Assembly: GCA_963849065.1 (NCBI GenBank)
Contig: CAWKFM010000003.1
Coordinates: 44,292 to 108,291 of the forward strand
Direction of reading: 5' to 3'
DNA length: 64,000 nucleotides
Source of the DNA: an uncultured Acidobacteriota bacterium
Lineage (GTDB): Bacteria > Acidobacteriota > Terriglobia > Terriglobales > Acidobacteriaceae
Shown here one piece after another: positions 43,850 to 61,777 of the stretch. The translations under genes and the position numbers were made by a program. Positions within the stretch are counted from its first letter, which is position 1. Every line of letters starts with the position of its first letter. The notes beneath the pieces were generated by a model. It made no database searches and was not told the origin of the DNA. It saw only the letters and a list, made by a program, of their open reading frames with translations.

Positions 43850-43906
43850 GCCGTGAGGGGCGCCTGCTCCTCGATTTTGTCCAGTCTTGCAGGATTCGCT
43901 GGAAGG

Positions 43907-43981
<75 letters not shown>

Positions 43982-44126
43982 AAATTCTCCCGCAAATAAC
44001 TGAAAGTGAATGCTTTCCAGAATTTCTCATGATCGGCCTCGTTGTGGCTGAATGGGGAAAAATTGGCCAAAATCAGGCACATTTTGGCTCGAAAGCGGAC
44101 AAAAAGCGGACAATGCTTTTTGCCCC

Positions 44127-45239
44127 TTAATTTTTGCGGGTTCCCTCACCTTGAGGTGCGAATTCGTCAGTATCCATGAGGGTTTGCTCATACTTCAGCA
44201 TCGCTTGCCGCTTGTGTTCAGCCGTGGGGTGGACATACCGCTGGACGATCCGGATGGAGCTGTGGCCGAGGATTGCCGCCAGCGTAGCCAGATCGACCCC
44301 AGCTTGGGCAAGTCTGGTTGCAAAGGTATGACGGAAGTCGTAGAGCACGAAATCGAGAGCCTTGAGGCCCTTCTTCTTGTCCACCTTGATGGCAGCATCG
44401 TGCCCCCGATTGAGACGCACGATGTGCTTTCCTGGCTTTGTAGGGGATGGAAATATCCAAGGCGAGTCCTTCTTCTTGGGGTTCTTTTCCATGCGACGGG
44501 CAAGGATCGACTTGCTCTCAGCCGTCAGGTCGAGCGTCCGCCTCGCCGCCTTGGATTTTCCTTGCCTGATATGGAGCTGTCCCCGTTCGAGGTCTATGTC
44601 TGCCTTGCCGAGGGACAGGACCTCCTCCGGACGCATACCCTGATTCCGCATCAGCCTCGCCAAATCCCAGAGATTCTTGTTTTTCGCGGCTCGCAGGAAG
44701 TAGTCCTTCTCTTCCGCTGCGGTTATTACGTGCATCCTGACCGCATCAGCATCAGACGGAATCTTGACGTTGCGAACGGGATTCTCTCGATGCCACCGTT
44801 GCTTGATTGCATATCGGAAGAACTTCGACAGTGCGTGAAGGTCATGCCGCAGAGTGATGTCGCGAACTTCATGCTCAGTGACTCGCCACGCCTTAAACGC
44901 TTCTACCCTGCCCTCATGAATCAGCGACACCGACTCCCTGCCAAAGAACATCTTTAGGCTCGTGAAGCTGGTCTCGATTCTCAGGAAGCTATTGGGGTGC
45001 GACCTGTGCTCCACCTTCACCCAGTCCAAGAAATCAGTGGCGGCGTCACTGAATTCGCGTACGACCATGTGCCGGGACGGATTTCGTCCCTCAGCCAAGG
45101 CAATGCGATGCTCAGCCTCGAGTTGCTTCGCTCGCGTCTCGTTTTGTTTCGTGGCGGCCAAGTCTGTCTTTCCGTTGTACTCCTTGCCTGCTACCTTGAA
45201 GCGGTAACTCCACTTCCCGCATCGCTTTCTCAGCGGCAT
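44127..45239 (-). CDS. int: tyrosine-type site-specific integrase
   Basis: C-terminal catalytic region (YDFRHTFATRLAQAG, LGHSSIRIVQRYVH) and an N-terminal SAM-like domain. ATG 45239 (GTG 45242 also in frame). Confidence 0.9.
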   Translation of the reverse strand: MPLRKRCGKWSYRFKVAGKEYNGKTDLAATKQNETRAKQLEAEHRIALAEGRNPSRHMVVREFSDAATDFLDWVKVEHRSHPNSFLRIETSFTSLKMFFGRESVSLIHEGRVEAFKAWRVTEHEVRDITLRHDLHALSKFFRYAIKQRWHRENPVRNVKIPSDADAVRMHVITAAEEKDYFLRAAKNKNLWDLARLMRNQGMRPEEVLSLGKADIDLERGQLHIRQGKSKAARRTLDLTAESKSILARRMEKNPKKKDSPWIFPSPTKPGKHIVRLNRGHDAAIKVDKKKGLKALDFVLYDFRHTFATRLAQAGVDLATLAAILGHSSIRIVQRYVHPTAEHKRQAMLKYEQTLMDTDEFAPQGEGTRKN

Positions 45240-45552
45240 CACTTGTCTCCTGTAGTCTCGTTTCCAGCCATGCGTCCACCCGATCTTTCGGATACCAGAT
45301 TCGTCGCCCCACCTTGAGGTAGGCGGGGCCCCTCCGCTGGCATCTCCAATCTGCTAGAGTCGCTGGCGATAAGCCCAAGTTCTGTGCCAGTTCCTCAGGC
45401 GAGATCAAACTATCAGGCAACACGAATAGACCTCGACCCAGTTTCCCCGCACCGGATGGCGGCTTTATGTTGAGCGGCTCAGAGGGACCGAACCTCGTTT
45501 CCATTGGTGGTGCCAACGACGCACCTACGACTGCTCCGCATCTGTGGTTCAC
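45112..45552 (-). CDS. xis: excisionase/AlpA-like helix-turn-helix DNA-binding protein
   Basis: ISPEELAQNLGLSPATLADWRCQRRGPAYLKVGRRIWYPKDRVDAWLE. Alternative start at 45504. The 3' end overlaps int by about 130 nt in another frame. Confidence 0.7.
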   Translation of the reverse strand: MNHRCGAVVGASLAPPMETRFGPSEPLNIKPPSGAGKLGRGLFVLPDSLISPEELAQNLGLSPATLADWRCQRRGPAYLKVGRRIWYPKDRVDAWLETRLQETSDAAEKAMREVELPLQGSRQGVQRKDRLGRHETKRDASEATRG

Positions 45553-46368: not shown

Positions 46369-46575
46369 AAATTTCCTCTCGGTTGGAAAACATACCATAC
46401 ATAGTCATTATATTCCTACAATGATTTTTATGTACGGGCTGGAGGGCCATCATTGGCAGGTGAAATCGCCGCGCGACTCCACACTACTCCGAGAATCGAT
46501 ACGCCGGATGACGGACGGCGGACTGGCGATGAGCGGGATGCGAGGTTTGCGTTAGTCTTAAGGGAGGAGACCGTG

Positions 46576-47397
46576 ATGCAGGAATCAGCCGCGTTGCCGC
46601 CTATCAATCCAGATTCGCTCCAGCAAACTGTCGACACCTTCCGTGTTTATTGCGGCGTTGTACTCCTATCATTCGCCCAGCATGGTCAGGGGCTTCGAGA
46701 GACTATCGCGCGAAGATTCGTCGCCAGAGGAATGATTTGCACGCAGAACATTTTGGCTGTATGGCGGGCCGGAAGCGAGCATGACGCCTGGATTCTCCAT
46801 CGGTCGCTAATCGACCGCCTTTTCCATCTTCGTTACCTGGGTGAAACGGGCGGGTTCTCTGAATTTGACGATTTTTCGTTTGCGTCATTATACGAAGCCC
46901 GGCAGCGGCTGCTGGCAGACCCAGACATGAGGAGCGAGCTTCCGGAAAGCCTGAAGGATACACAGCAACGAGACAAGGCGCGATACGAACAGATCCCTCC
47001 CAGGCAATCCCGATGGCGGCGTCCGAAAGCAAGGGACGTGGCAAAGCAGATGGATCTCTGCTTTCTATACTCGTGCGCTTACGATTCTGCCTCGGCTCAA
47101 ATCCATCCAACGTCCGATGAAGGCGACGCTGATTTCGAGATATTGACGAAGCCGTTAGGGACGGTTGCTCTTCCCAGCTCGATTGTCGTTACAAATTCAA
47201 TCCTCATTCACGCCATACTCGTTCAAGAAGCCCTGAATGTTAGCGAGATGCGCTGGCACTCCCTCGCCTATGATTTCCTAGACCATGTGCTTTTGTTTCT
47301 CAAAACCGGGGAACAGCGGTTTCAATCGACCATGCGTGAGATCGCTCAGTTCTGGCCCACATCGCCGCTTTGCAAGCCGCCCAGCGGCAAGAACTGA
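46576..47397 (+). CDS. hypothetical helical protein (273 aa), first gene of the unknown trio
   Basis: ATG 46576 lies 6 nt after GGGAGGAG. I recognise no confident family. There is a weak resemblance to AbiV/DUF5677-like helical proteins (ILHRSLIDRLFHLRYL ... YDSASAQIH). Confidence 0.6.
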   Translation: MQESAALPPINPDSLQQTVDTFRVYCGVVLLSFAQHGQGLRETIARRFVARGMICTQNILAVWRAGSEHDAWILHRSLIDRLFHLRYLGETGGFSEFDDFSFASLYEARQRLLADPDMRSELPESLKDTQQRDKARYEQIPPRQSRWRRPKARDVAKQMDLCFLYSCAYDSASAQIHPTSDEGDADFEILTKPLGTVALPSSIVVTNSILIHAILVQEALNVSEMRWHSLAYDFLDHVLLFLKTGEQRFQSTMREIAQFWPTSPLCKPPSGKN

Positions 47398-47523
47398 TCG
47401 ACACGGCTGCTGAGTTGGATGCCAATTCTCCGACGAACGCTGAGTTTAGCTGCCGCCGCCGTTACCGCCCGTTGATTGTCGGTAGGTTTGTCGTACCATT
47501 ATATCGGCCGCACATGGAGAATA

Positions 47524-48168
47524 ATGTCAAACCTTGATTGGTTCTTCCGCAGCAGCCGTTCCGCACCGAACCGTGGCGAACGTTTCAGCCAGCTCTACTT
47601 GCTACGTAGGGACATCGACACTTGTTTCGGAGTCAATCCAAATACAGGATTACCGTTCTGCGTCGTAGACCCGACCACAGGTGCGCGCACCAGCTGCGAG
47701 GCGATCTGGCCTGGCACGATGGCCATTCTTGCTGGCATTGACCTTCTTGGCAAGTTCCGTGCGGGGACCGACGTAACTCGGGGTCCGGGTAGTGTGAGTG
47801 TCAGGCAGCGATTCGTAGATTTTTCAAGGCTATATCTGAGTCTCTCGGAGACAGACGCATATCTGGTCTACCATCTGCGGAACTCGTTACTGCACTCGTT
47901 CGGTCTAAATTCCGAAAAGACAGACGACAAAGGCACAGTCACCGCGACGTACGACTTCATTCTTAGCCGCGGTGCGGGCAAGCTGCTTGAACATTTCACA
48001 AGCGACTTCTACCGCGTGGACGTGCAGTGTCTTCGTGACCTTTTCGAACGAGCTATTGCGAGGTACGAAGCCGAGCTACGTGACAATTCGCGCAGCGATT
48101 ACCAAGATCTTAATGATAAGTTCAATGCAATGTTTCCCAAGCACGCGAAGCCCATGAGCGTGATTTAG
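47524..48168 (+). CDS. hypothetical protein (214 aa) with an Rx4H HEPN-like motif
   Basis: ATG 47524 follows GGAGA. The motif YHLRNSLLHSFGL fits the HEPN R-x4-6-H signature. Confidence 0.6.
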   Translation: MSNLDWFFRSSRSAPNRGERFSQLYLLRRDIDTCFGVNPNTGLPFCVVDPTTGARTSCEAIWPGTMAILAGIDLLGKFRAGTDVTRGPGSVSVRQRFVDFSRLYLSLSETDAYLVYHLRNSLLHSFGLNSEKTDDKGTVTATYDFILSRGAGKLLEHFTSDFYRVDVQCLRDLFERAIARYEAELRDNSRSDYQDLNDKFNAMFPKHAKPMSVI

Positions 48169-48293: not shown

Positions 48294-51200
48294 ATGGCGC
48301 TTTCATTGGATGATCTAGTTAAGGACGGTAGGCTAGAACGGCTGTTTTCCAAGCACTGCCGCGACTGCGCTCTGCAGCTTTGGGTGCTACAGATAAAGTC
48401 CGACAACGGAATCGAGAACCGACTCCTCTACGGACGACTTCTTCCCTACAATTACTCTAACAACACTTGGTCCGCCGCGGAGGATGACCATTTTGAATCG
48501 GTTGGGGAGCACAAGGCTCAAATCATTCGACTCAGCCTGTACATCAAGAGCACCGGCACCGAGGCGTTACTGAAACATCTGAGTGAGGGCCACGCCGTGT
48601 CGCGCATCAGCGAGGACTTGAAGCTGACGCTGTCCCCGAAGCTAGCCGAGCGGATAGGAACGACAACGCTCAGTTCACACTTGGTTTATCGCCCAGTCGC
48701 CTACCTGCTGAATCGAGATTCGCGAGATCGAACCGCACCTTTGAGTCCACACGGGGGCGCGGGCGCATTCAGTGCATCTCTGACTCCAACCGATAAGATA
48801 GCATTGCTTCGCATTGGATCGGATTGTGATGAGGCTTTGGCGACATTTATTGTCAAACAGCTGGATTTCGACACTGGCTTGGACTTCGGGGACAGAGATC
48901 TCGGCCGATTAGGTGATTTGGAGCTGTTGGTCTTTCCGACCCTGGACGACAGCGAGCGGGAACTGTTGAGCGTGGGCTGGAAAGTAAAACCCAGAGTTCT
49001 CGCCGTGAAGCTGAATCCGATTCAACTCCCGCGCTATGACAGATTCCATGTCCGTCTGAGTGTATTCAACGACAGCCAACTCGTTCATTCAAGTATCGCA
49101 ACTGTCGAGTGCGTCGAGGGCCGTGAATTTGAGTGCGAGTTCGAGGTGCCTGAGCAACTGCGCACGGTTGTCGACGAAACGGAGGTCGAGATTCATGGAT
49201 CATCCTCGATCAACGACGACCGAACTTGCGATCTGTGTTGCAGATGGCGGGTCGGCTATGTACGGGAAATTACCGTCAACGGCCATGTGAACGGACGAGG
49301 AGGTGGCTCTGTCCGGCTCGGCTGGCTCGAAAAGGTGACAAAATCCGCAGCCGCTTCGAAACGGCTACAAGCGGCTCAGACCATCAATCAGGGAGGCACG
49401 GGGTTTTCGACTCACGTGGGAGACCGAAAGGCCGATCCATGGGTTCCCATTAACCGTGGCGTCAGATCACTATTTGCCCGAGTGCATCCGCCGCAGTCGG
49501 ACGGACGTTTTTTTGAACGTCTGAGCGAAGGCAGCGGCTTGGGACGCTTGGAGTTTGTGGAATGGGTAAAGGCCCTATTGGTTAGGCACCAAAATCATCA
49601 GGTCATAATTTTTGACCCTTTCTTTGAGGACGCAGGCATTGGACTCGTCGTTCCAAATGCGGGGAGCCACGGCGATTACATCGTTTTTACATCGCTGCCC
49701 AAGCCCGCAACGCAAGAAGCCAGCACTCGGATCAACAATCTGCTGGCTAGCTGCGAGCAGCTCAAGCCTTTGATGAGGGGGATCAGATTGCGCGTGTACG
49801 GTCTGAAGTACGGAACACTACACGACCGTTATTTCCTAATCGTCGGTCAGGACGGATTACCAACCGCCGGCTTCCATCTCTCGAACTCCATCCAAAAGGC
49901 AAATGAGAATTACCCTCTGCTGATTACGCCGATACCTCCTGACGTCTTGCTCAAGGTAAACAAATACGCGTCCAAACTTCTAACGCAAGCATTTGAGGCA
50001 TTTTCTAGTACCGAAGCCGATACTTCAAGGGTGCAGCTACTCTTCGACTCGAAAGCCGCGCTCGCTACGTCCCCTAAACGCATTGAACCGTTGAGGTTTC
50101 TCGACAAAGGCGTCGCTGGCGATGTCCTGGCCGGGTGGACGGGGGAGCAGTCGCTTCGGAGTTTGGAAGGCGACGCCCTTAGGGAGAAAATGAGGGACTT
50201 GGGCTTGCTGAACGGCGAATCGCTTGTTCTAAAGGAGGCCCCTGGGCTTAAGGGCTGCGTCGATCAACAGGCAGGGAACTTCACGAACTTCGGCGCCAAA
50301 TGGGACGTACTCGGCGAGATCCTGGCCAACTCGCATGCGGGAAATACGATCCATGCAGTCGAGCTATCGGCGGAAACGGATTTTCTGACCTTTTTGGCTG
50401 AGTTTTTGAGCGGCTCATTTGGTCGAGTACATAACGACGAGGTCGATGCACCAATCGCGCACGTCGCTAGCACCTACTTCAAAGACGCTATTGAAACGCT
50501 GCTTGCCGCATCCCATCAGCCTGAGCACTTTTTCCATCCCGTTAAGTACGCCGTCCTGAGCTGGTCGGAGTTCTTCGCCGTACAAATCCTGTGGCACCAC
50601 GCTCCAGCTGCATTACTTTCAATGACAGAAGCGCAAGCTGCAACAGTGCCGGAGGATAGTAGGCAATCCGATGCGGTTAAGCTTTCCTTGCTGAGTCAAA
50701 TAGTGAGTGAGATCGCACTCGGGGCGCAATTCGGACTTGCCGGCTTACAGCGGGACCGACTGATTTGCAGCCCCAATGGCTTACTTAAGTGGATGGGGCT
50801 GAATTCTCTCGAATCGCAGCTCCAAAAACCGAATGGCGTGCGCGAGGTCGTTCAATATACGGCGTCGTTCAGTCACAGGGAGAGGATACAGGTACTGGGT
50901 TGGATGACCCAACACTCTGCGGGGCGACAGAATGGCGAGACTATTTATCGTGGTCTGATCGATTCTCTCCATGAGGTTTTACCGCGGGCGCTAACCGCGG
51001 AGGATGCTGATCTCTTGGTGGATTCCATGCGCGGACATATGCGGGCCCTAGGCTGGGGTGAGCCATGGCTTTATCGGGACGTAATATCCCCTCTGTTCGT
51101 AGATGGACGCGTTTCCGCAGATGACCTTTGTCGTATTTGGGTCAAGGAGTTGCTCGCTTATTTGGAGCAAGCCCTCAGGGATGAAACGGGCATCTTCAAG

Positions 51201-51578
51201 AGAAGCGCAGAAGGCAGGGTCACAGAGGTAGCAGCGTTTCTGTTCGGTCGCAGCGGCCTTCAGCAGCAAAGGGAGAGCGTAAAGGTGCTTAGGTCAGTAC
51301 TCACCAGAGTTCGGCGAGACGTTCATCAGCCTCTAGCTAGTACGTCGAACTGGAACAAATGGAACATTTCCATAATCGTTGCAATGTGGATTTTCGCTTT
51401 TACGAAGTGGGCCGCGCACTTCCTGGTGAAGCCTAGCGAAATTGAACCGGAGCTAGAACGACTTTCAACTGACGCACGTCTCGTTGCCCTCGTCAGGCCG
51501 GTAATCGACTGGCAGTCAGACCGAGGTGTAGAGCCAGGCGCGCTTGCACAGTTTATAGAAGAAGTGGGGGCAATCTGA
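48294..51578 (+). CDS. large hypothetical protein (1094 aa) with a central MIT_C/PLD-fold-like module
   Basis: ATG follows GGAGAAG. The motif pair QVIIFDPFF ... GTLHDRYFLIVG resembles the xDPYx...HDRxI pair of the MITD1 C-terminal PLD-like domain (from memory). The large flanking N- and C-terminal regions are unassigned. Confidence 0.7.
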   Translation: MALSLDDLVKDGRLERLFSKHCRDCALQLWVLQIKSDNGIENRLLYGRLLPYNYSNNTWSAAEDDHFESVGEHKAQIIRLSLYIKSTGTEALLKHLSEGHAVSRISEDLKLTLSPKLAERIGTTTLSSHLVYRPVAYLLNRDSRDRTAPLSPHGGAGAFSASLTPTDKIALLRIGSDCDEALATFIVKQLDFDTGLDFGDRDLGRLGDLELLVFPTLDDSERELLSVGWKVKPRVLAVKLNPIQLPRYDRFHVRLSVFNDSQLVHSSIATVECVEGREFECEFEVPEQLRTVVDETEVEIHGSSSINDDRTCDLCCRWRVGYVREITVNGHVNGRGGGSVRLGWLEKVTKSAAASKRLQAAQTINQGGTGFSTHVGDRKADPWVPINRGVRSLFARVHPPQSDGRFFERLSEGSGLGRLEFVEWVKALLVRHQNHQVIIFDPFFEDAGIGLVVPNAGSHGDYIVFTSLPKPATQEASTRINNLLASCEQLKPLMRGIRLRVYGLKYGTLHDRYFLIVGQDGLPTAGFHLSNSIQKANENYPLLITPIPPDVLLKVNKYASKLLTQAFEAFSSTEADTSRVQLLFDSKAALATSPKRIEPLRFLDKGVAGDVLAGWTGEQSLRSLEGDALREKMRDLGLLNGESLVLKEAPGLKGCVDQQAGNFTNFGAKWDVLGEILANSHAGNTIHAVELSAETDFLTFLAEFLSGSFGRVHNDEVDAPIAHVASTYFKDAIETLLAASHQPEHFFHPVKYAVLSWSEFFAVQILWHHAPAALLSMTEAQAATVPEDSRQSDAVKLSLLSQIVSEIALGAQFGLAGLQRDRLICSPNGLLKWMGLNSLESQLQKPNGVREVVQYTASFSHRERIQVLGWMTQHSAGRQNGETIYRGLIDSLHEVLPRALTAEDADLLVDSMRGHMRALGWGEPWLYRDVISPLFVDGRVSADDLCRIWVKELLAYLEQALRDETGIFKRSAEGRVTEVAAFLFGRSGLQQQRESVKVLRSVLTRVRRDVHQPLASTSNWNKWNISIIVAMWIFAFTKWAAHFLVKPSEIEPELERLSTDARLVALVRPVIDWQSDRGVEPGALAQFIEEVGAI

Positions 51579-51599: not shown

Positions 51600-52826
51600 C
51601 TATGCGGCAGCCATGGGAATCACCTCACCGAACGGTGCCGGATGATCCTTGGTGGCCGCCCATAGGACTGGATGGTTCGGTGCGGCGTCTGGAAAGGAGC
51701 CCTCAAGGTCGGTGAAGACCACGAGCGCCTGCGGCTGGATCGAATGCTCCTCGATGTATTCAAAACAGGGGCAGAAGCTGGTCCCACCGCCGCCTACTGG
51801 TTCGAGCGTAATCGGCTCGCCCTGTTCGAAGACGGCGGCGTTATGGACCCTGGTGTCGAAGTAGAGGACATGCACCCGCTGGGGCCTCCGCTCCGAGATG
51901 ATGGAGTTCAGTTCATCCTGGAAAAGCCCGAGCTGGCGGCGGTTGATCGAGCCGGAGCAGTCCACGCCGACCACGATTTCACCCACGCCATCCTTGCGAA
52001 TGCTTGGCAGGTACAGGCCTGAGGCAATGTGGCGCCGGTTGGGAGACGACCAGGAGTAGTCCTCGGGGATTGCCGCGGCGAATGAATTCCGGAGTGCGGC
52101 CCGCCAGTCCACGGTTGCCCGATCCGCCGCCTCCACGGCACGGCGCATGCCGCCGGGAGCTTTGCCAGCCATGCGAGCGACCAATTCGGCCTGTTCAACA
52201 GCTCCGGTCCAGCTCATCTGCTGCTTCTCGATCTGGTCGCTGGTCGCCGACGCGCCTTCCTTGTCGGGGTTGGGCGCATCGATGACCTGGCCAAAACCGC
52301 CGTCCGTCACTGGAACCTTGTGCGCTGGAGCCCCTTCGTCTCCCTGGGCCGAAGGATCTCCGGACCCGGAATTCGTGGAGCCGTCGCCACTGCCGCCGGC
52401 AGCGTCGCCGTCTTTGTCCTCGGCGATCAAGTTGTAGATCCGCTCTGCGCTCAGGTTCCGAAATGCCGGATCATAGAGTGCACCGGCAGGGAGAGCGAGG
52501 TTTGCATCCCGAACGAGCGGGTTGATGGCGTAGTCGCAGGCGACGTTCCAGCGTTTTGCCGAACGCGTTCCCCGCCGGGTATGGTGTTGCAGTGCCGGAT
52601 GCATGACTTCGTGCGCCAAGCAGCCAAGCAGCTCCGGCGGCGTCAGTTTCGCCACGAATTCAGGGTTATAGAACAGGGAGACGCCATCGGTCGCCATGGT
52701 GTCGATCGATGGTGTCTCCACGTCCTTGAGCCGCAGAATCAGAACCCCAAAGAATGGGAAATCGAGCAGCAGTTTTGTCCGGCCTTGCTTGAGCCGCACG
52801 GCTGGGGAGAGTGTTCTTGCAGTCAT
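51600..52826 (-). CDS. VWA-domain protein with N-terminal putative metallopeptidase domain (DUF2201-like)
   Basis: HEVMHPALQHH (HExxH), VACDYAINP, and VWA MIDAS-like VGVDCSGSI. Alternative start at 52913. Confidence 0.75.
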   Translation of the reverse strand: MTARTLSPAVRLKQGRTKLLLDFPFFGVLILRLKDVETPSIDTMATDGVSLFYNPEFVAKLTPPELLGCLAHEVMHPALQHHTRRGTRSAKRWNVACDYAINPLVRDANLALPAGALYDPAFRNLSAERIYNLIAEDKDGDAAGGSGDGSTNSGSGDPSAQGDEGAPAHKVPVTDGGFGQVIDAPNPDKEGASATSDQIEKQQMSWTGAVEQAELVARMAGKAPGGMRRAVEAADRATVDWRAALRNSFAAAIPEDYSWSSPNRRHIASGLYLPSIRKDGVGEIVVGVDCSGSINRRQLGLFQDELNSIISERRPQRVHVLYFDTRVHNAAVFEQGEPITLEPVGGGGTSFCPCFEYIEEHSIQPQALVVFTDLEGSFPDAAPNHPVLWAATKDHPAPFGEVIPMAAA

Positions 52827-53099
52827 AAGTTGGCCCCGTGTGGTTGCTTCAGTTCTGGCAATGCGCTTGCCATTCTGATTCGTATTTGGTTGGTGATGTC
52901 TGGGATACAACAAAAGTGGACTTCCAAATCATTGGCGGGCTGTAGTCTATTCGTGCGAACAGTAAATCACGCGGTCCCAGCGAGTAGCTTCCTGTTTTTG
53001 CCCGTCTTAGCAGAACTGCTCACACTAATGTGATTTTGTGTAATTCCTTTTTGTCGTTGCAGAGTATTATTATTTTTTCCAAAAAAGTGATAGGGAGTC

Positions 53100-54923
53100 A
53101 TGATTGAACATCTTAGTGTGAGCCGTGCAGCCTATTTCTACAGGCGCAAGAAGCGTTTCTCAAATGTCGCGATCGACACGCTTTTTAAGACGCTGCGGTC
53201 GAATGCCAGTACGCCTTCAAGGAACTTATTCCGGGTCGATCGCGTTGCGTTCAGGAACTCGAGATATTCTGCAATATGCTTTTCGTTCGAGCGTTCTCCC
53301 GCATTCCTCGACAACGAAGCCGAAGTTATTGAGTGTATCTTCGGGTTTTTACTGATCGTGGAGAAAGGCGATTTCGTAGCCGTTCTTAAGTCAGGTCTCG
53401 ATCTCCCCTCGGCCTTCAAGTCTAATTATCTCGACAAGGTCGGCAGCGAGCGGGTCGAGCGCGCCATCGCCCGACATGATGCGGTCTTCGAGAAGCTGCG
53501 ACTTAAGAATATGTCTACTTCGAAGCTCGCGCTGCGCTCCAAGACGCTTGAGGCCACTGATCTGGTAAATGCGGTGGCGACGTCAAGCGCCAGCCGCTTC
53601 GCGCCGCAGGGCTACAGTGTGCGGCGGTCCGATGGTACCTATTCGGCGACGCCTAGTACGGGACGTATCTCTATCCGCGCTGACCGGGCAGGCTACGAGG
53701 AGATTGTACGTTGGGCCAGCGAGGTTATGGATTTGCTCGCAGCCGACAGTGGAGAGATCTCGGCCTTCATCCGAAACTTCGCTCGACCGATCGACCTGTC
53801 TGCGATCCCCAGTGGCGTGAGACCAACTTATGTTGCAATCGACGTGCCGAGTCTTGCCAGCGTTTTGTTGGAGGCGGGGGAACGTACCGTCCGGCTTGTT
53901 CGGCAAAATCAAAGCAGCTTCGTCGAAATGACCAAGGTCGAGATCGATCACATTCTCGAGGAACTCGACCGAAGCTTCCCCATACAGCCCGAGCAGATAC
54001 AGAACCATATTGTGCATCCGGACGACCAAGCTCGAATCGGCTTGGTTAAAGTGGGCAAGACGCGAATCTCCCTGCCAAGCTTCACGCTGCCCCTGTTAAC
54101 GAGTATTTTCGTTGAAAATGCCGCCCTTCCGGTTGGGGCCGACCCCGACCGCAGGCCACTCACCCGCTATCTCGATCGCGAAGACCTTTTCACCGTCCTC
54201 TTCAACGATTTCGCGCTCGCTTACATTGATGGCTCCTTGTACCGGGACGAGGCGCTCCTCGGCGGAGGCATGGACTTTCTTCGCCATCTACAAGCGGCGC
54301 TTCCGCTTGCCCAAACGACCAGCGAGAAAGGAGAATTCGCTGCTGGCCAAGAAGCATTTGACGATACGTCGGTATTTCGGGCCATCGTCGACGACATTGC
54401 ACGCGACGCTGATGTGCTGCTGTGCGATGACCTTGGCGACGAGTGGGCAGACTTTATCGGTATCAGCACCGTGACTCGTCCTGTGATGGTTAGTTTCTAC
54501 CACGCCAAGCATGGGGAGAGATCGCTCAGCGCCTCAGCCTTTCATGATTCAGTGGGACAGGCAATTAAGAATCTCGGGCGCATGACGCTGCCATCTGAGG
54601 CCATGCCAGCCAAATATGCGTCTTGGGAGACGCCCTATCGCGGCGCCGGGGCAGTAACCGCAATCCCAAGAATGATACGCGGCGGTGGACGGTTAGAGAT
54701 TGAACATAAGATTCAGGAGGTACGTAGCGCGCCAGACCTGCTAAAACGGGTCTTTATTGTCACTTCGTCGCTGAGCCGAGCGCAGGTCGAGTACGCCTTC
54801 ACAGCCGCTGCTGCGGGCGAGCCACTTTCGGCACACTTCGTCCAGCTTTATTGGTTGCTCATGTCCTACTTCTCTGCTTGCACTGAGATCGGTGCGATTG
54901 GCTATGTTGTGTGTCAGCCTTGA
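53100..54923 (+). CDS. hypothetical protein (607 aa) with a PD-(D/E)xK-like C-terminal signature
   Basis: ATG follows AGGGAG in an AT-rich divergent promoter region. VLLCDDLGDEWADFIGIS-x12-VSFYHAKHG fits D...(E/H)xK nuclease cores. The overall architecture recalls the 'sporadically distributed' TIGR04141/DUF6119 family (memory only). Confidence 0.65.
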   Translation: MIEHLSVSRAAYFYRRKKRFSNVAIDTLFKTLRSNASTPSRNLFRVDRVAFRNSRYSAICFSFERSPAFLDNEAEVIECIFGFLLIVEKGDFVAVLKSGLDLPSAFKSNYLDKVGSERVERAIARHDAVFEKLRLKNMSTSKLALRSKTLEATDLVNAVATSSASRFAPQGYSVRRSDGTYSATPSTGRISIRADRAGYEEIVRWASEVMDLLAADSGEISAFIRNFARPIDLSAIPSGVRPTYVAIDVPSLASVLLEAGERTVRLVRQNQSSFVEMTKVEIDHILEELDRSFPIQPEQIQNHIVHPDDQARIGLVKVGKTRISLPSFTLPLLTSIFVENAALPVGADPDRRPLTRYLDREDLFTVLFNDFALAYIDGSLYRDEALLGGGMDFLRHLQAALPLAQTTSEKGEFAAGQEAFDDTSVFRAIVDDIARDADVLLCDDLGDEWADFIGISTVTRPVMVSFYHAKHGERSLSASAFHDSVGQAIKNLGRMTLPSEAMPAKYASWETPYRGAGAVTAIPRMIRGGGRLEIEHKIQEVRSAPDLLKRVFIVTSSLSRAQVEYAFTAAAAGEPLSAHFVQLYWLLMSYFSACTEIGAIGYVVCQP

Positions 54924-55027
54924 AGACCAAGAGTCGAACTGTCCTGACGTAGCATTCCAAAAGTCACGGTTCTTTCGAGCACGTGACTAGCTGGGAGTGG
55001 ATCTAAACGCCGTTGGAACAGCGCATC

Positions 55028-55049
55028 GGACGAGGGTGTCGCCTCGTCC
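55028..55049 (+). terminator. hairpin downstream of the 607-aa gene
   Basis: GGACGAGG-gtgtcg-CCTCGTCC, with no T-tract. Confidence 0.3.
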
Positions 55050-55357
55050 ACGGGACGACGACTTTATACTTCTGAGATACTGCAATCGCGCGACTGGACG
55101 TGTCTATGCTGACCATACTTCACCCGTTTGAACCAAGACGACACTGCAAATATGCGAATAAACCTCGGCAGGAAGTCGGGCATGAATGATAGAGAATCTT
55201 GTCAATGGCTGGAAACGCCCCATTCGAGAACAATTTGCCATTGCCTGGCGGACAGATTCGCCGCACAATCGAAGTAAGATCCACAAATCTGGTCGGTAGG
55301 GAATAACAAGGACCACATGCGCTGGGCCGTAGGCGGCTGGAGAAACAACGATGCTCA

Positions 55358-56716
55358 ATGCGCACCCGTAGGAGCGAATGCGTGAGCCTTTACAACGACC
55401 AACAAGAGTTCCTGCGCAGCTTACGCGATCTGATCGAGAACCGTCATCGCAAGTTCGCGGGTGCGCAGTTTAGAGTTGCGTTCGTCCGCGATGAAAAAGG
55501 TGTAAACCAATTCCTCACCGGATGCGCACTGTTGCTTGAAAATCAAGCAATCTCCCGTCCTGCACAGGACTATAGGTACATTGTATTGGCGGAGGAGTGG
55601 GTAGAGGGTGACGAGGCAGTCCTGCACAGGATCGAACAGATTGTCAGCGGCACAGGAGCAATCGCTAATGCAGCGGTGGGCCGCACATTTACGCACGCCA
55701 CGCTGACGCGCAAGTTTGATGCGGCTATACGGGGATGGGGAGGTTGGGAATTCTCTAGTCGCGTGGACCACACAGCCCAGGAGCGGGAGACTTACCTGCG
55801 TCAAGAACCATTGCTTGCGTTTGGGCTGAGGCCCTATAACTCTGCTTTCGAGGCCATCCTAAGATGGGTTTTCGAGGAAAAGAACACCGATTTCTATCCG
55901 CCTGGAAACAGAGCTCCGAACCAAGGCGAGTTTCTTACACTGGTCGCCGACACGCGTGCTCGGATCGTGAGGGCTGAGTGGCTGCCAGGTCTCGTCAACG
56001 CCGAAGTTGAACTGGGAGTCGATCCAAGAGAGGTTGAGGCTCAGTTTCTATTTGCAGGGGCGGAAGACGATACCCGTACACTGAACACGGGTTCGCTCTC
56101 CTTAAAGTGTGAAGTCCCGGAAGGCACGCGCACCACGAGGCTCATGCTGGTCCATTCGACCAATGACTGTATCTCTAAGATCCTACTGAATGGAGAGTAC
56201 GACACATACGGACCTCAGCCGTTGGCTCTCAGTGCAATCAGAAAAGCAGAGCTCGACCTGAAAGAAGGTGAAAACGACCATGTGGAATATAAACCATGGG
56301 TTTCGCCAAAGTCTCCGGAGAAGGAAGCAGAGCTCGTCGAAACAATCATCGCATTTGCCAACACTGGTGGTGGACGGCTTTATGTTGGAGCCGCGGATAG
56401 CGGCAACCCACTCGGTGACACGGCTCTGTCGAAAGCGTTCAAGGTTGAATCCGATATGGCCGCGATCCAGCAGGCTGAGAGAATCAAGAGCCTCAAACGC
56501 GAGAAGATAAAGCCAGTGCCCCCGGTCCGAGTGGAACTGATCACGGTTTTTGGCGAGCGCCTAGTTCTAGTTGAAGTCGAGCGCGGGAGCAGGCGACCAT
56601 ATTCAACATTTGAAAACAAAGTATTCGTCCGCAAGGGCGGGAGTAACAGGCTCGCGGATCCACACTCGGAGCTTCCCGCCCTCAGCCCACAGTCTCTGCT
56701 GCCGGATGGCTCCTGA
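55358..56716 (+). CDS. hypothetical protein (452 aa) with a C-terminal AlbA_2 (Schlafen-like, 'divergent AAA') domain
   Basis: EGENDHVEYKPW...ETIIAFANTGGGRLYVGA...RPYS...VFVRKGGSN matches the AlbA_2 pattern. The ~300-aa N-terminal region is unassigned. Confidence 0.65.
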   Translation: MRTRRSECVSLYNDQQEFLRSLRDLIENRHRKFAGAQFRVAFVRDEKGVNQFLTGCALLLENQAISRPAQDYRYIVLAEEWVEGDEAVLHRIEQIVSGTGAIANAAVGRTFTHATLTRKFDAAIRGWGGWEFSSRVDHTAQERETYLRQEPLLAFGLRPYNSAFEAILRWVFEEKNTDFYPPGNRAPNQGEFLTLVADTRARIVRAEWLPGLVNAEVELGVDPREVEAQFLFAGAEDDTRTLNTGSLSLKCEVPEGTRTTRLMLVHSTNDCISKILLNGEYDTYGPQPLALSAIRKAELDLKEGENDHVEYKPWVSPKSPEKEAELVETIIAFANTGGGRLYVGAADSGNPLGDTALSKAFKVESDMAAIQQAERIKSLKREKIKPVPPVRVELITVFGERLVLVEVERGSRRPYSTFENKVFVRKGGSNRLADPHSELPALSPQSLLPDGS

Positions 56717-56880
56717 TTTGGAGGATGTGTGAAGGAATATAGCGTCGATTTCACCAGCTCTCCCTCTGGTCGGAAGCCGATCACTGTGGCAATAGGATTG
56801 GTTTCCAATGCACTGTTGAAACTCGATACAGTGGTTGTTGGATTGTATTCGGTCGATTGAAGCACTCGGTACGGATCTGC

Positions 56881-56942
56881 AACCATAAAATGGCCGCTAA
56901 TGATTACAGCCATAAATTGGCCGTTCTGGCCAACTTATGGTT
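56881..56942. repeat. three copies of a ~14-nt motif (two direct, one inverted) between convergent genes
   Basis: AACCATAAAATGGCC (56881-95), GCCATAAATTGGCC (56909-22), and GGCCAACTTATGGTT (56928-42), which is the reverse complement of AACCATAAGTTGGCC. Confidence 0.6.
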
Positions 56943-56964
56943 GTAGTGTCAGGGGAAAGATTTG

Positions 56965-57996
56965 TCATGCGATTAGCTCCATGTAATCCGACATTCTCAC
57001 CAGAATTTGATCCACTCCGGGTGCTGGCGCGGGTTGGGGTGCCGGATCGGTTGGCTTCGGATCGGGCATGTGGACCGCCATGGCCGGAACCTCCGCTGTT
57101 CCGGAGACATGGCCGATGGCCGCAGATTCATCCAAGGCGTCATAGCCGCGATGCTTCATCGCGTGCTTGATCTTGGCTGCGAGTTCGTTCGCGATTCCCG
57201 CCGCCCGAGTGCGCGCCGCGGGATGCTGGGCGAGGTCCTGGCGGGTAAACCTGGAGAGCCGGGAGTTTGTCTCCTGCGCGAGCGCCGTTAGTTCTTCGTC
57301 GTTGGTTACGTTCAACCGTGGAACGAGATCGGCGATCTCGGTTACGTTGCGGAGAGTGGACGTATGCAAACGGGCTTTCGGCCGCTCCAATTGCGCGGCG
57401 AGGTGGGCGACCGCCTGTATGAGGCGCGACCACAACTCGGACGTGGCGCGCGTGAGGGACTGCTTCACCTGCTGATCGATCTCGCGGGCGACGCGAGCCT
57501 TCTCCTCCGCGCCAAGCGTGACGCGGAAATCCTCGCCACAGGGAATGGGGAGAATGTCGGTCGTCAGGTCGAACTTCTCAGTGAGCTGCGACCAGTCCGG
57601 GTAGTCGCTATCGCGGTACAGAAGGCCAAGGCTGTTGCGGGCCTGTTCGCGATAGGTTGGATAGGCGTCGAGAAACTCTCGCACCAACTGTTCGAATGCC
57701 GTCTTGAACTCGCTCATCTGGCTGGTGAACTCGAAATAGAGGTGGGACGGGAGCAAGCGGTAGCCCTCGTCCGACCAGGGCAGAGTCACTTTGTAGAAGT
57801 ACTGGCGGATCTGGCCTGCGAGGTTGCGCAGTTCCTCCAGCTTCTCGGCCTGGTCGAGCAGATGCTTGTTGTAGCGGCCGGCGTTCGAGTTTGCTTCGTG
57901 GGACTGCGCTACCTCCTCAGACACCCGCCTGTCGAACTTGCGTGCGCTCCACATCGTGATATGAAGACAGATCAGCATTGCTTTGTCGGAAATCAT
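56965..57996 (-). CDS. DUF3150-like protein
   Basis: N-terminus MISDKAMLICLHITMWSARKFDRR resembles the DUF3150 'WSGRK' start. It lies directly downstream of the AAA gene. ATG 57996 lies within ORF 56965..58230. Confidence 0.55.
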   Translation of the reverse strand: MISDKAMLICLHITMWSARKFDRRVSEEVAQSHEANSNAGRYNKHLLDQAEKLEELRNLAGQIRQYFYKVTLPWSDEGYRLLPSHLYFEFTSQMSEFKTAFEQLVREFLDAYPTYREQARNSLGLLYRDSDYPDWSQLTEKFDLTTDILPIPCGEDFRVTLGAEEKARVAREIDQQVKQSLTRATSELWSRLIQAVAHLAAQLERPKARLHTSTLRNVTEIADLVPRLNVTNDEELTALAQETNSRLSRFTRQDLAQHPAARTRAAGIANELAAKIKHAMKHRGYDALDESAAIGHVSGTAEVPAMAVHMPDPKPTDPAPQPAPAPGVDQILVRMSDYMELIA

Positions 57997-58039
57997 TTCG
58001 TTTTCAAGCCTCCAGACGTAGCCCTGGATCGGTCCAGAG

Positions 58040-59050
58040 CTACGCGAGTAAATCGCTGTGAGTGATGGCGAATTGGGTGAATTCGGGGGTGGTCGCAATG
58101 GCCGGGTCACGGAGCAGAGCATCGCGCATGGACAGGACCTGCAGCTCATCCGGAAGACGCTCGAGGTAGAGCTTCGCCTTCGCAATCGAGCTATCAGTGA
58201 TGCGGCGGCCGAGTGCGGTGGCAATTGCAATCTGGGCCGACGGATCGCTGGGCAAGGGCGCGCCGGTTGGGTTCAGGAGAATCTCGTCAATCGAAGGCAG
58301 GGCGTGAAAAAGGTTAAGGAAGCCGATGAACTCCGCGGCTACGCCGTCACCCACTGCGCCTTGAATAAGGTGCATGAGCAGCATCTCGTAGACGTCCGCG
58401 GTGACGTTGGCCTTCCGGGCGTCAATTCCGTCCATCGCCCTGGATACCATTTCCCAGGAGCGCGGCGTCGGCCAGGCGTTGACACCCGACCGCACGGCCG
58501 AGTCGTGCAACAACTCCGTCCGGAAGCGAAGAAATGCGATGATTTCCGGCCTGATCCCTGCCTTGCCGGCCCAGATGCACCACTCGCCGAGATCCGGTTC
58601 CAGCGTGAGATGCAGGAAGCGGTTGAGCAAAGGGCGCGGCATGGAATAGCTGACGCCACGCTCGGAAGCGGGATTGCCCGCGGCAAGCACCGACCATCCA
58701 TCGGGGAGCCGATAGTCGCCAAGCGCACGATCGAGAACGAGCTGATAGCAGGCGGCCTGCGTCATCGGTGGCGCGGAGGTCAATTCATCGAGAAAGAGTA
58801 TGCCCTCGCCGCCTGTGGGGAGGAAATTCGGCGTGATCCATTCCGTGCGGTCGTCCTTGATGCGCGGCAGACCACGGAAGTCGACGGGATCGAGCTGGAC
58901 GGCGCGTACATCAATAAAGTCGCGCTTCAACTGCTGCGCGACCTGCTTAACGAGTTGGGATTTGCCGACGCCACAGGCGCCCCAGATATGGAGCGCAACG
59001 TTTTGAGGGACTGCGGTGATAAGCGCTTCAACAAGGTGCGAAGGTTTCAT
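58040..59050 (-). CDS. MoxR/CbbQ-like AAA+ ATPase (AAA_5)
   Basis: Walker A GACGVGKS, Walker B ILFLDELT, and AAGNP followed by the sensor region. Confidence 0.85.
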   Translation of the reverse strand: MKPSHLVEALITAVPQNVALHIWGACGVGKSQLVKQVAQQLKRDFIDVRAVQLDPVDFRGLPRIKDDRTEWITPNFLPTGGEGILFLDELTSAPPMTQAACYQLVLDRALGDYRLPDGWSVLAAGNPASERGVSYSMPRPLLNRFLHLTLEPDLGEWCIWAGKAGIRPEIIAFLRFRTELLHDSAVRSGVNAWPTPRSWEMVSRAMDGIDARKANVTADVYEMLLMHLIQGAVGDGVAAEFIGFLNLFHALPSIDEILLNPTGAPLPSDPSAQIAIATALGRRITDSSIAKAKLYLERLPDELQVLSMRDALLRDPAIATTPEFTQFAITHSDLLA

Positions 59051-59410: not shown

Positions 59411-59761
59411 TCATGGGCGGTTTCCCTCGTCCATGAGCGCAGCCACTTCCCGCACCAGGACGGGCAGCTTCGACTGGACGATGTCCCAGACGATGCGTTC
59501 ATCCACCTGGGCATAGGCATGAACCAGAATATTGCGAAAGGCAACGATGCTGCGAAAGTCGGTAATCCTTGCTGCCAGTGTGGCGTCCACGCGGGCGAGC
59601 TGCGCGAGCGCCTCGCCGATAATAGCAAAGGCCCGCTCCACTGCCATACGCAGCATCGCGTCCTGCTGGTAATTCGCAAAGCTCTTGCCGGCCGTGAACT
59701 GCGAGGCCAGTCCGGCGGCCTCCTGAATGTCATAGAGATACTTCCGCGCCTCAAGCCGCAT
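59411..59761 (-). CDS. hepT: HepT-like HEPN (DUF86) toxin
   Basis: RNILVHAY (Rx4HxY). Overlaps the upstream MNT gene by 11 nt. Confidence 0.85.
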   Translation of the reverse strand: MRLEARKYLYDIQEAAGLASQFTAGKSFANYQQDAMLRMAVERAFAIIGEALAQLARVDATLAARITDFRSIVAFRNILVHAYAQVDERIVWDIVQSKLPVLVREVAALMDEGNRP

Positions 59762-60059
59762 AGAGGAGCGCCTTACTTTGCTCGATACTCTGGCGGAAAT
59801 ATGGATTCCTGATGGCAGAACCCACGACAAGATCGACGGATCGTCCGAAGAGTTGCTCCAGCGATTCCTTGAAACCGAAAAATGAAGCGGCATAGCCGCC
59901 GTCCGGCATGGCTTCGAACTCCACCAGAAAATCGAGGTCGCTGTGCTCCGGATCGTAGGCATCGCCGAGGGCCGAACCGAACAGTTCCAACTGGCGGACG
60001 TGAAACTGGCGGCAGAGCTGGATCAACTCAGCCCGATGTTCCGCAATGGTGGAATTCAT
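59751..60059 (-). CDS. mntA: MNT-type nucleotidyltransferase antitoxin
   Basis: ELFGSALGD...DLDFLVEF (GS-x10-DxD minimal NTase motif). Confidence 0.85.
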   Translation of the reverse strand: MNSTIAEHRAELIQLCRQFHVRQLELFGSALGDAYDPEHSDLDFLVEFEAMPDGGYAASFFGFKESLEQLFGRSVDLVVGSAIRNPYFRQSIEQSKALLYAA

Positions 60060-60273: not shown

Positions 60274-60954
60274 TTAGTCATTGGGCAAGTGCGCCGTAAC
60301 GAGATTGGACAGTACATGCCAAGCCCGCGCTTCTGGTGATCGATTTGTCAGCAACCAGTCTCGCTCCACCGGTGTCATATTTTCCCGGCTGAAGGTGTCT
60401 TCTTTTGCAAGCAGCGATCCGCGCAGAACTTCTTCCTGCCGCGCCAGCTGCGACGCAACTTCTGGCTGCTGTTTTTCTTCCGCGACCTTTCTCGCTAGGG
60501 TTATCGTGAATCCAAGCCGGTTCTGCAAATCACGGACCTTCGCTTCGCGCCGAACCCACTCCCAATCCATTCCGACAAAATGCCTGACCAACCATGGCAA
60601 TCCCTCCGCAACACGCCGATCCAGGTCGGGTTGCGCCAAAGTCATAACCAGAAACTGTGCGGGATTCCAGGAGGGCAAACCAGTTCGAAAGTACCCGTAT
60701 GCTGGATAGCCGAGATTGGACAACTCCTGAGCAAAATCCGCCGGCACCGATTCCGCATCTTTCCGGATAGGTAGCTTGGTCGCATCGAACTCCAGACCAA
60801 GTTTGCATAGTTTCGGTAGCCATTGAGCAGGAACCGGACGTGTTCCATGCTCCCAGAGCGAGACAAGGGTCTGCGATACCCCGAGACGGCGGGCCAACTC
60901 GTGCTGGTTCCATCCATGCTGTTTTCGTAAGGTCCTGAGATCAGCGCTGGCCAT
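60274..60954 (-). CDS. XRE-family helix-turn-helix regulator with an unassigned C-terminal domain
   Basis: LRKQHGWNQHELARRLGVSQTLVSLWEHG. Confidence 0.8.
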   Translation of the reverse strand: MASADLRTLRKQHGWNQHELARRLGVSQTLVSLWEHGTRPVPAQWLPKLCKLGLEFDATKLPIRKDAESVPADFAQELSNLGYPAYGYFRTGLPSWNPAQFLVMTLAQPDLDRRVAEGLPWLVRHFVGMDWEWVRREAKVRDLQNRLGFTITLARKVAEEKQQPEVASQLARQEEVLRGSLLAKEDTFSRENMTPVERDWLLTNRSPEARAWHVLSNLVTAHLPND

Positions 60955-61073: not shown

Positions 61074-61283
61074 TCAGCCATCCCCATCGGACGGAACGGA
61101 TTGGCTCCTCTGAGGACTGGCCGGAGTCTTCCTGGCGACAAGATCCCGCAGCAAGTTGATCTCTTCCCTCTGTCTCACCCAATCCGCGATCAAGGCCTCA
61201 AGCGGCCTACGGGCAATCGATAAGTAGTGGGAGTCGTCGTTGGAGGCAGAAATGTCCAAGAGGATCAAGAGTAAGAAGTTCAT
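61074..61283 (-). CDS. small hypothetical protein coupled to the HNH gene
   Basis: Its ATG overlaps the HNH stop by 4 nt. Confidence 0.3.
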   Translation of the reverse strand: MNFLLLILLDISASNDDSHYLSIARRPLEALIADWVRQREEINLLRDLVARKTPASPQRSQSVPSDGDG

Positions 61284-61777
61284 GAGACTCTCGGTCGGAT
61301 TGAACCCTTGAGGAGGTTGCAGAGCCGATGCGCCGCTTGAATGTTGTCTGGGTGGTCATCGCGCCTTGCCGCTCCCATACCCTTGGGCTCGATGTGGTCG
61401 GGGACCACGTCATTGCAGTCGGTAAGCGGCAGGTGACAGATTCCGCAGTTTCCTTTTTGCGTGAAGATTTTCTGGGTGAGCACTTTCCGCAATTCCGCAG
61501 GCGAGCGAAGTTCCCGGTATCCTCTGGGATGATTCGGGTCGTCGATTCGCTCGACGCCCATTGATAGGCGTCCGGTCTTGGACGCCTCCTCGCGGCCGCA
61601 GCAGAAACGGGAGTGGTGGATGGGACAAGATTGGTTTCGGTGAAGTTTCACGGAAGTGCCCTCGTGTGTTTTGGTGGTTGCTGTGCATATCTTTGCCGGT
61701 GGGGTGTTTTGCTTCGTTCTGCTTCGGTCAAGGGATCGAAAAGCGGAGCGGATCCAGGCGCTCGCTGCGGAGCTCAT
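61280..61777 (-). CDS. HNH endonuclease
   Basis: CGICHLPL...VPDHIEPKG...DNIQAAHRLCNLLKGS (HNH/HNN core). The start is uncertain (61777 or 61561). Confidence 0.7.
   Translation of the reverse strand: MSSAASAWIRSAFRSLDRSRTKQNTPPAKICTATTKTHEGTSVKLHRNQSCPIHHSRFCCGREEASKTGRLSMGVERIDDPNHPRGYRELRSPAELRKVLTQKIFTQKGNCGICHLPLTDCNDVVPDHIEPKGMGAARRDDHPDNIQAAHRLCNLLKGSIRPRVS

Follow-up and report, generated by a model that had tools for sequence, protein, structure and literature searches.

A PDC-S71 family protein from Acidobacteriota with a predicted DNA-clamp-like module and a putative restriction-type nuclease domain

What is the function of the 607-residue protein encoded at positions 53100–54923 of a 64-kb stretch of DNA from an uncultured Acidobacteriota bacterium (contig CAWKFM010000003.1; the whole stretch is hereafter called the window)? 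An earlier reading of the nucleotide letters, the original prediction, had proposed that it is a candidate defence effector with a PD-(D/E)xK-like nuclease signature. We found that the gene is a member of the PDC-S71 family and that its product probably joins, on the evidence of structure models, a DNA-clamp-like N-terminal part to a divergent restriction-type nuclease C-terminal part. We tentatively propose, with slightly less than even confidence, that PDC-S71 is a stand-alone DNA-binding nuclease that restricts foreign DNA. The open reading frame (ORF) was found in the window with exactly the predicted limits, strand and length, and its ATG start can be trusted because 25 homologs share the N-terminus MIEHL:

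53100..54923, + strand: complete gene for the PDC-S71 family protein, 607 amino acids (ORF; PADLOC model PDLC05077; homolog searches).

To which family does the protein belong? PADLOC returned a single match, PDC-S71 (PDLC05077, E = 9.3e-119, 395.9 bits), aligning residues 2–607 with positions 4–589 of a 589-position profile. The Pfam scan of the query gave no match at E ≤ 0.1 and the NCBIfam scan gave noise only, with TIGR04141 not among it. Likewise, 76 diverse members scanned against Pfam and NCBIfam at E ≤ 1 matched no DUF6119, TIGR04141, RdgC, SAVED or nuclease family, and the NCBI prokaryotic genome annotation pipeline (PGAP) labels the homologs "hypothetical protein". The PDC models are a set of 145 "guilt-by-embedding" defence candidates, each nominated from a member embedded in a BREX, DISARM or type I restriction-modification locus (Payne et al., bioRxiv 10.1101/2024.01.29.577857). 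The proposal of a candidate defence effector is thus supported by an independent listing of the family as a phage-defence candidate; for the same reason, it is not new. We found no S71-specific text or data in the text or supplements of Payne et al. or in the searchable literature.

The family is large, with 580 word-index matches and 1131 clusters at 50% identity, 396 of these at E ≤ 1e-30. Nearly all clusters are about 600 residues long and matched along their full length, and they span at least seven phyla or classes. For the analysis of genomic context, we used 80 loci of homologs from Acidobacteriota, Alpha-, Beta- and Gammaproteobacteria, Dormibacterota and Anaerolineales, among which the closest homologs were from Acidobacteriota (77–87% identity). 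No PDC-S71 homolog was found in phage genomes or in E. coli genomes. IMG/VR contained a single distant relative locus (L088:7980-9794, UViG_2778261231_000006), 24% identical over the full length, on a predicted viral contig of 36 kb. A full-length homolog with 58% identity (P0101) was also present in a eukaryotic transcriptome (EukProt TRINITY transcript), where it most likely reflects bacterial contamination.

Does the C-terminal part carry the residues expected of a nuclease? Both motif strings cited in the original prediction, VLLCDDLGDEWADFIGIS and VSFYHAKHG, are present in the protein, although the spacer between them is 7 residues (TVTRPVM) rather than 12. The unassigned N-terminal region, put at about 420 residues, is closer to 390, with the nuclease-like domain beginning around residues 395–405. 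The domain and its conserved positions are as follows:

54282..54920, + strand: C-terminal domain, residues 395–607, a putative catalytic domain of restriction-endonuclease-like (PD-(D/E)xK) type (AlphaFold2 model and weak Foldseek neighbours).
54324..54329, + strand: invariant E409-K410 of the SEKG motif (116/116 sequences; kept in helicase fusions).
54429..54452, + strand: acidic cluster D444-x3-E448-x2-D451, CDDLGDEWAD loop and start of strand beta2 (each acid 116/116).
54501..54509, + strand: H468-A469-K470 at the end of strand beta3 (K470 invariant; H468 in 104/116).
54558..54572, + strand: Q487 and K490-N491 on helix alpha2 (116/116 each; kept in the fusions).

Conservation was scored in 116 relatives that are 23–48% identical to the query. 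Ten columns were invariant (E409, K410, F426, D444, E448, D451, K470, Q487, K490 and N491), and C442, D443, W449, A450 and A478 were conserved in at least 94% of the relatives. Because C442, D444, E448, W449, A450, D451 and K470 are all invariant or at least 94% conserved at such low overall identity, conservation of the motif, as judged from the alignment, is far beyond chance. The expected D/E/K conservation held only in part: D451 and K470 are invariant, but position 468 is His in 104 of 116 relatives and V, I, A, L or N in the other 12, indicating that H468 is not essential. Helicase fusions from Bacillota, Actinomycetota and Alphaproteobacteria, which are described below, retain every one of the invariant residues.

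We modelled the protein with AlphaFold2, both in full length (mean predicted local distance difference test score, pLDDT, 78.9; predicted TM-score, pTM, 0.66) and as residues 383–607 alone (pLDDT 92.6, pTM 0.91). The model of the C-terminal domain comprises helix alpha1 (425–433), strands beta1 (439–442), beta2 (452–456) and beta3 (463–470), helix alpha2 (479–490), an insert, strand beta4 (548–559), two helices and a last strand (599–606). Judged by the order of its elements, the domain contains the alpha-beta-beta-beta-alpha-beta core of PD-(D/E)xK enzymes; by this measure, the predicted structure has a restriction-endonuclease-like core. In this model, D451 lies where beta2 begins, H468-x-K470 ends beta3, and Q487, K490 and N491 are on the helix that follows. 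Compared with a PD-(D/E)xK site, D451 and K470 are thus invariant and correctly placed, while the middle position is His or, in the remaining relatives, a hydrophobic residue or Asn. D444, E448 and E409 are candidates to substitute for the missing acid of (D/E)xK.

The structural neighbours of the domain point in the same direction below the level of significance. The weak PDB neighbours include FokI, Nt.BspD6I, the SFTSV L endonuclease, Cap4, MspJI, CdiA-CT (4g6u), CidB nuclease domains and the R2 endonuclease, and the weak BFVD neighbours are HamA first, then herpesvirus UL24, bunyavirus L proteins and several proteins named PD-(D/E)XK. This enrichment of the PD-(D/E)xK superfamily in the weak Foldseek tails is consistent with a nuclease and serves as a lead. 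Since topology and residue placement fit, but significant similarity to a known member was not obtained, we consider a nuclease fold of the modelled C-terminal domain likely and no more than likely. The PD-(D/E)xK arrangement of the original prediction is thus supported by the conserved Asp and Lys, the strand order and the placement of D451 and K470; its "E/H" position, H468, is not essential.

What, then, is the N-terminal part? It forms a separate module in the full-length model:

53100..54281, + strand: N-terminal module, residues 1–394, beta-rich, a putative RdgC/RexA-like DNA-binding scaffold (AlphaFold2 model; Foldseek).

Over residues 1–390, pLDDT values averaged by block are mostly 81–95 and drop to 47–55 around residues 141–170. 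When the full-length model was searched against the PDB with Foldseek, the top match was E. coli RdgC (2owl_A, E = 9.9e-5, probability 1.0, 305 columns), an alignment so long that most of it must fall within the N-terminal ~390 residues. RdgC is a ring-shaped dimer that binds DNA without sequence specificity. In the structural comparison, the module may resemble the RdgC/RexA class, and the RdgC Pfam model PF04381 matched neither the query nor the 76 members. According to the paper on its crystal structure (PMC11077077), lambda RexA, which acts as the sensor in Rex phage exclusion, is structurally related to this RdgC entry, 2OWL, as well; the paper defines a RexA/RdgC/IML3/CHL4 DNA-binding fold. 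Chains of two yeast inner-kinetochore complexes (8ovw_N and 8ow1_P), which contain IML3 and CHL4, appeared lower in our list as low-probability matches and may be those subunits. Conserved basic positions (K132, R146, K148, R166, R189 and R196) and a median net charge of +6 for the module across the family were also found; the basic cluster at residues 132–196 and this charge are, as sequence features, weakly consistent with nucleic-acid binding. Cap4 was matched by the full-length model at E of about 1e-2 and by the C-terminal domain alone at E of about 1.

If the protein binds DNA and cuts it, relatives fused to other domains may reveal the substrate. A tblastn search of plasmids found the module within proteins of about 1005 residues annotated "DEAD/DEAH box helicase" in Bacillus, Mycobacterium avium, Rhizobium, Sinorhizobium and Bradyrhizobium. 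In the Bacillus mycoides fusion, a ResIII/DEAD domain (12–178) and a Helicase_C domain (242–337) are followed by positions 30–586 of the PDC-S71 profile (residues 439–1001, E = 3.6e-35), and the gene adjoins HNH endonucleases and a Gabija-like TOPRIM/UvrD pair. A helicase followed by a nuclease is the layout of ATP-dependent restriction enzymes. The helicase-then-PDC-S71 order is therefore the strongest indirect evidence that the substrate is DNA.

The fusions lie on megaplasmids of Bacillus mycoides, Mycobacterium avium and Rhizobium (L084:5808-8825, L085:5790-8804 and L083:7203-9416), and their C-terminal part is recognised by PADLOC alone. The Rhizobium fusion is flanked by IS5, IS66 and a 118-residue Cap4_nuclease/LmuA-like fragment (L083:9653-10009). 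In a further protein of 1018 residues (P0160), a Peptidase_S41 domain (148–363) is fused N-terminally to a complete PDC-S71 module (433–1018).

Is PDC-S71 part of a larger system? Its commonest neighbour is DUF2235, found at 17 of the 80 loci, and no neighbour is common to all loci. None of the 13 neighbours in the window recurs beside the homologs, and no conserved small downstream ORF was found. PDC-S71 thus behaves as a stand-alone single-gene cassette. The pairing with the downstream 452-residue gene that had been suggested was dropped, as that gene is missing from all 80 loci. The DUF2235/Tle1-like hydrolase (PF09994, E = 6e-75) adjoins PDC-S71 in a subclade at 56–61% identity and in Bradyrhizobium. 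Its gene overlaps the PDC-S71 start codon by 4 bp in eight loci and precedes PDC-S71 in the same orientation, at a distance below 100 bp, in a further four; in two Bradyrhizobium loci it lies 27 bp downstream of PDC-S71. The pair was recorded at L004-L010, L015 and L019 (about 8820-10004) and at L071 and L073 (about 11837-13064). It occurs directly after two types of operon of the cyclic-oligonucleotide-based antiphage signalling system (CBASS), beside Hachiman or without a recognised system. DUF2235 plus PDC-S71 is possibly a two-gene variant of the system; the 64-kb window contains no DUF2235, CBASS or Hachiman gene.

More generally, CBASS, Hachiman, Gabija or Septu genes are often adjacent to the homologs, which places the family in defence contexts. 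Of the 80 loci, 23 have CBASS or Hachiman no more than 10 kb away, a count that includes no correction for shared ancestry and no genome-wide background. The CBASS loci encode a CD-NTase with E2 and HNH-SAVED or a CD-NTase with NucC, often with CapP, and the Hachiman loci carry HamA/HamB. The flanks of other loci include Gabija GajB, Septu PtuA/PtuB, DRT and further HNH-SAVED and HamB matches. Integrase, recombinase, relaxase or VirD4-like/conjugation genes are present in 24 of the 80 loci, and a Comamonas relative lies between type IV secretion system (T4SS) genes and a MobF relaxase.

How might such a protein work? In the scheme that we tentatively favour, the N-terminal ~390 residues would form an RdgC/RexA-type scaffold that holds DNA, and the C-terminal ~210 residues would form a divergent restriction-endonuclease-fold domain. 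Its active site would be built from D451 and K470, the acids D444, E448 and E409, and Q487, K490 and N491 on the following helix, and would cut, in a metal-dependent manner, the DNA held by the N-terminal module. As for its biological role, this single-gene cassette, which moves from one genomic island to another, would restrict phage or plasmid DNA that enters the cell. We infer every element of this scheme: nuclease chemistry, DNA binding, oligomeric state, trigger or target, and defence phenotype. Self DNA could be spared through a modification-dependent (type IV-like) specificity or through an abortive activity triggered by infection; either would fit, and the data favour neither.

Several observations weigh against a stand-alone restriction nuclease. 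(i) The C-terminal domain had no significant Foldseek match in the PDB (best E = 0.45; FokI, E = 0.6), where the top rows by E-value are RecA with probabilities of at most 0.06. In BFVD, the best match, the C-terminal domain of HamA (E = 0.07, probability 0.41), was not significant either. (ii) Alignment of the C- and N-terminal profiles with HamA and NucC by hhalign gave no signal above ten control families, all taken from the fetched homolog loci. A sequence search of the PDB with the full-length profile returned only a spurious DIB1 match (E = 0.89), a diverse C-terminal profile returned zero matches at E ≤ 10, and no profile link to any nuclease family was found in Pfam, PADLOC or the PDB. 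(iii) The canonical middle acid is replaced by His, or by V, I, A, L or N in 12 of 116 relatives. (iv) The alignment to RdgC 2owl_A has a TM-score of 0.36 on the target and a root-mean-square deviation of 8.2 Å. With hhalign, the probability was at most 0.3% against E. coli RdgC, used as a single sequence or as a shallow profile (its homolog search gave only sequences at least 85% identical), and 0.1% against lambda RexA; a lack of sequence-profile signal is expected for this fold class. (v) No conserved self-protection partner, methylase or immunity gene, was found in the homolog loci. The CBASS and Hachiman loci are partly non-independent, as L005, L008 and L009 represent one layout, and in A. 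baumannii the PDC-S71 gene lies among housekeeping genes. Finally, a PDC nomination is possible from a single embedded instance (bioRxiv 10.1101/2024.01.29.577857).

How did the gene reach its present location? In the window, tRNA-Gly(GCC) and tRNA-Cys(GCA) at 43738-43981 are followed by a tyrosine integrase (44127-45242, - strand), and past these genes the GC content falls from 0.63 to 0.57. The tRNAs, the integrase and the drop in GC place the locus in a tRNA-integrated island with its left border at 43738-45242. A search of the 64-kb window for att repeats of the tRNA 3' ends was negative, which leaves two options: a right border outside the 64 kb or a repeat of fewer than 14 bp. Inside the island, PDC-S71 interrupts a conjugative-element module:

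51600..52913, - strand: DUF2201 metallopeptidase/VWA gene (interrupted module).
52914..56964, no strand assigned: cargo of about 4 kb, containing PDC-S71 and an unrelated Schlafen/AlbA_2 gene, both on the + strand, that splits the minus-strand trio (plasmid synteny and GC content at third codon positions, GC3).
56965..58230, - strand: DUF3150-like gene (interrupted module).
58040..59050, - strand: AAA (MoxR-like) ATPase (interrupted module).

The AAA, DUF3150-like and DUF2201 genes are contiguous beside T4SS genes on Burkholderia and Paraburkholderia plasmids. GC3 is 0.59–0.63 in the cargo, 0.71–0.74 in the split module and about 0.84 in core genes. As GC3 differs and the trio is split, PDC-S71 is recently acquired cargo in an already foreign element. 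A second, short contig (L082) encodes an identical protein with the same Schlafen neighbour.

The other genes of the region were also inspected. The 452-residue gene (55358-56716, + strand) encodes a C-terminal Schlafen/AlbA_2 domain (residues 305–433, E = 5e-19) besides an unassigned 300-residue N-terminal part. A VPA1262-family protein of 1094 residues (48294-51578, + strand; NF040699, 1077 bits), whose gene shares the GC3 range of the cargo, is preceded by co-oriented genes for a family-less 230-residue protein (47476-48168, + strand) and a DUF5677 protein (46453-47397, + strand). With GC3 of about 0.60, these three genes may be another cargo or a defence-type module in the island. On the far side of the trio, overlapping genes at 59411-60059 (- strand) encode a HepT-like (HEPN) ribonuclease toxin and a nucleotidyltransferase (MNT) antitoxin, followed by a helix-turn-helix protein (60274-60954) and a weak HNH protein (61280-61777).

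From where is the gene transcribed? The region upstream of the start codon had been described as an AT-rich divergent promoter:

52827..53099, no strand assigned: AT-rich divergent intergenic region with AGGGAG just before the ATG, a candidate promoter (base composition).

Its AT-richness was confirmed, with a GC content of 0.443 overall and 0.31 in the last 80 bp, compared with 0.556 in the gene itself. The promoter was not, since a simple sigma-70 scan found no consensus promoter on the + strand upstream of the gene. Transcription from 52827-53099 is plausible on base composition. A terminator scan found only a weak hairpin 3' of the PDC-S71 stop codon. The limits of the region depend on the DUF2201 gene (51600-52913, - strand), for which the mechanical ORF starts at a TTG (52913). 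The ATG of Met30 (52826) is the likelier start, because plasmid homologs align only from residue 40, and only with that start is 52827-53099 (273 bp) truly intergenic.

Could the protein serve the mobile element rather than defend the host? It could be a housekeeping or competition factor, a DNA-binding nuclease that, for instance, serves in entry exclusion, destroys rival plasmids or processes DNA during transfer. The gene sits inside a module that is T4SS-adjacent on plasmids, and the mobility genes in 24 loci, the Comamonas relative and the near absence of PDC-S71 from phages (one distant IMG/VR locus) all agree with such a role. Yet no conjugation module has PDC-S71 as a conserved part, the loci have no neighbour in common and the window gene is compositionally foreign to the module that it interrupts. 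Defence genes are typical cargo of such elements too, so that context does not discriminate, and we consider a mobile-element function unlikely. Alternatively, the C-terminal domain may not be a nuclease at all but bind a nucleotide or second messenger, or catalyse another hydrolysis, the protein acting as a sensor or regulator. The lack of a significant nuclease match, the missing (D/E)xK acid and the RecA, AAA and kinase-like alpha/beta proteins in the weak Foldseek tail would be explained in this way. The Tle1-like hydrolase adjacent in 15 loci could then be the real effector, and the better match of Cap4 to the full-length model may involve the N-terminal part and the SAVED sensor. This is somewhat less probable still, because three invariant acids and an invariant Lys on a beta-hairpin are a hallmark of metal-dependent phosphodiesterases, the SF2 (superfamily 2) helicase is fused where restriction enzymes carry their nuclease, and most loci, the window included, lack a cyclase or a separate effector.

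The CBASS genes raise a related question, whether PDC-S71 is an accessory effector that senses a cyclic oligonucleotide with its N-terminal part and cuts DNA with its C-terminal part, as Cap4 would with its two domains in the opposite order. In about 16 loci, the gene is indeed directly downstream of, and co-oriented with, the two types of CD-NTase operon, usually behind DUF2235, and Cap4 is among the fold matches of the full-length model. But with a CD-NTase near in only about 16 of the 80 loci, some 80% of them and the window lack one, no member (the query and the 76 scanned) matches a SAVED, CARF or Cap4_nuclease family, and the DUF2235 pair also occurs beside Hachiman or without a recognised system; we regard a CBASS effector as very improbable. 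Equally improbable is the kinship suggested in the original prediction, that the protein is a divergent member of TIGR04141/DUF6119 (PF19614). A similar length and a sporadic distribution, as noted there, speak for it, and hidden Markov model (HMM) searches speak against it: the query matched neither family at E ≤ 0.1 and the 76 members matched neither at E ≤ 1, nor did two remote stand-alone relatives. PGAP, which uses these models, leaves the homologs as hypothetical proteins. A literature search on DUF6119 and TIGR04141 found nothing relevant, and this membership was rejected.

What would a stand-alone PDC-S71 restriction nuclease mean? Single-gene nuclease-type defence candidates are an already well-populated kind. 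A bolder version, which we regard as possible though doubtful, is that PDC-S71 represents a distinct class of single-polypeptide immunity enzyme, in which a RexA/RdgC-type DNA clamp is fused to a highly divergent restriction-fold nuclease and the module is reused with an SF2 helicase, an S41 peptidase and a Tle1-like lipase. DNA sensing and DNA destruction would then reside in one chain, and a RexA-like clamp joined to a nuclease, if this reading holds, would connect a defence cassette that is widespread today with the oldest phage-exclusion sensor fold known. PDC-S71 is a large family without a Pfam domain or a solved relative, yet an annotation tool in wide use already lists it among the defence candidates. 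What is new here is the set of invariant residues, the boundary between the two domains, the reading of the N-terminal module as RdgC/RexA-like, the fusions to helicase and peptidase domains and the partnership with DUF2235. E409, D444, E448, D451, K470 and Q487, together with a domain boundary near residue 395, provide handles for mutagenesis, and the helicase, S41 peptidase and DUF2235 variants point to DNA as the substrate. In addition, two wrong leads are removed, namely kinship with TIGR04141/DUF6119 and a partnership with the Schlafen-domain gene downstream as a two-gene system.

How does the window protein compare with known systems? It is a member of the single-gene candidate PDC-S71 (PDLC05077) of PADLOC, from which it shows no structural difference, and like the members on which PDC nominations are based it is "embedded", here nested within a foreign element. 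It shares with TIGR04141/DUF6119 a similar length and a patchy distribution, according to the original prediction, and differs from them in having no HMM match at any threshold tried. Its likeness to restriction proteins that combine an SF2 helicase and a nuclease, such as type III Res subunits, comes from relatives that carry the ResIII/DEAD helicase N-terminally; the window protein itself has no ATPase, and no Mod-type methyltransferase partner was seen. The N-terminal module matches RdgC 2OWL, as RexA does, through structure only (TM-score 0.36, no profile signal). RexA has 279 residues and a separate membrane partner, RexB, whereas the PDC-S71 scaffold continues into an enzyme-like domain in the same chain, and a RexB-like gene is absent. 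Like the PD-(D/E)xK defence nucleases (HamA, the Cap4 nuclease domain, the FokI cleavage domain and type IV enzymes such as MspJI), PDC-S71 is predicted to have an alpha-beta-beta-beta-alpha-beta core, with an invariant Asp where beta2 begins and, on beta3, a Lys that is likewise invariant and lies two positions past a semi-conserved polar residue. It differs from them in the His, instead of Asp or Glu, before this Lys, in lacking a significant structural or profile match, and in having a distinct signature of further invariant residues, E409-K410, D444, E448 and Q487-x2-K490-N491.

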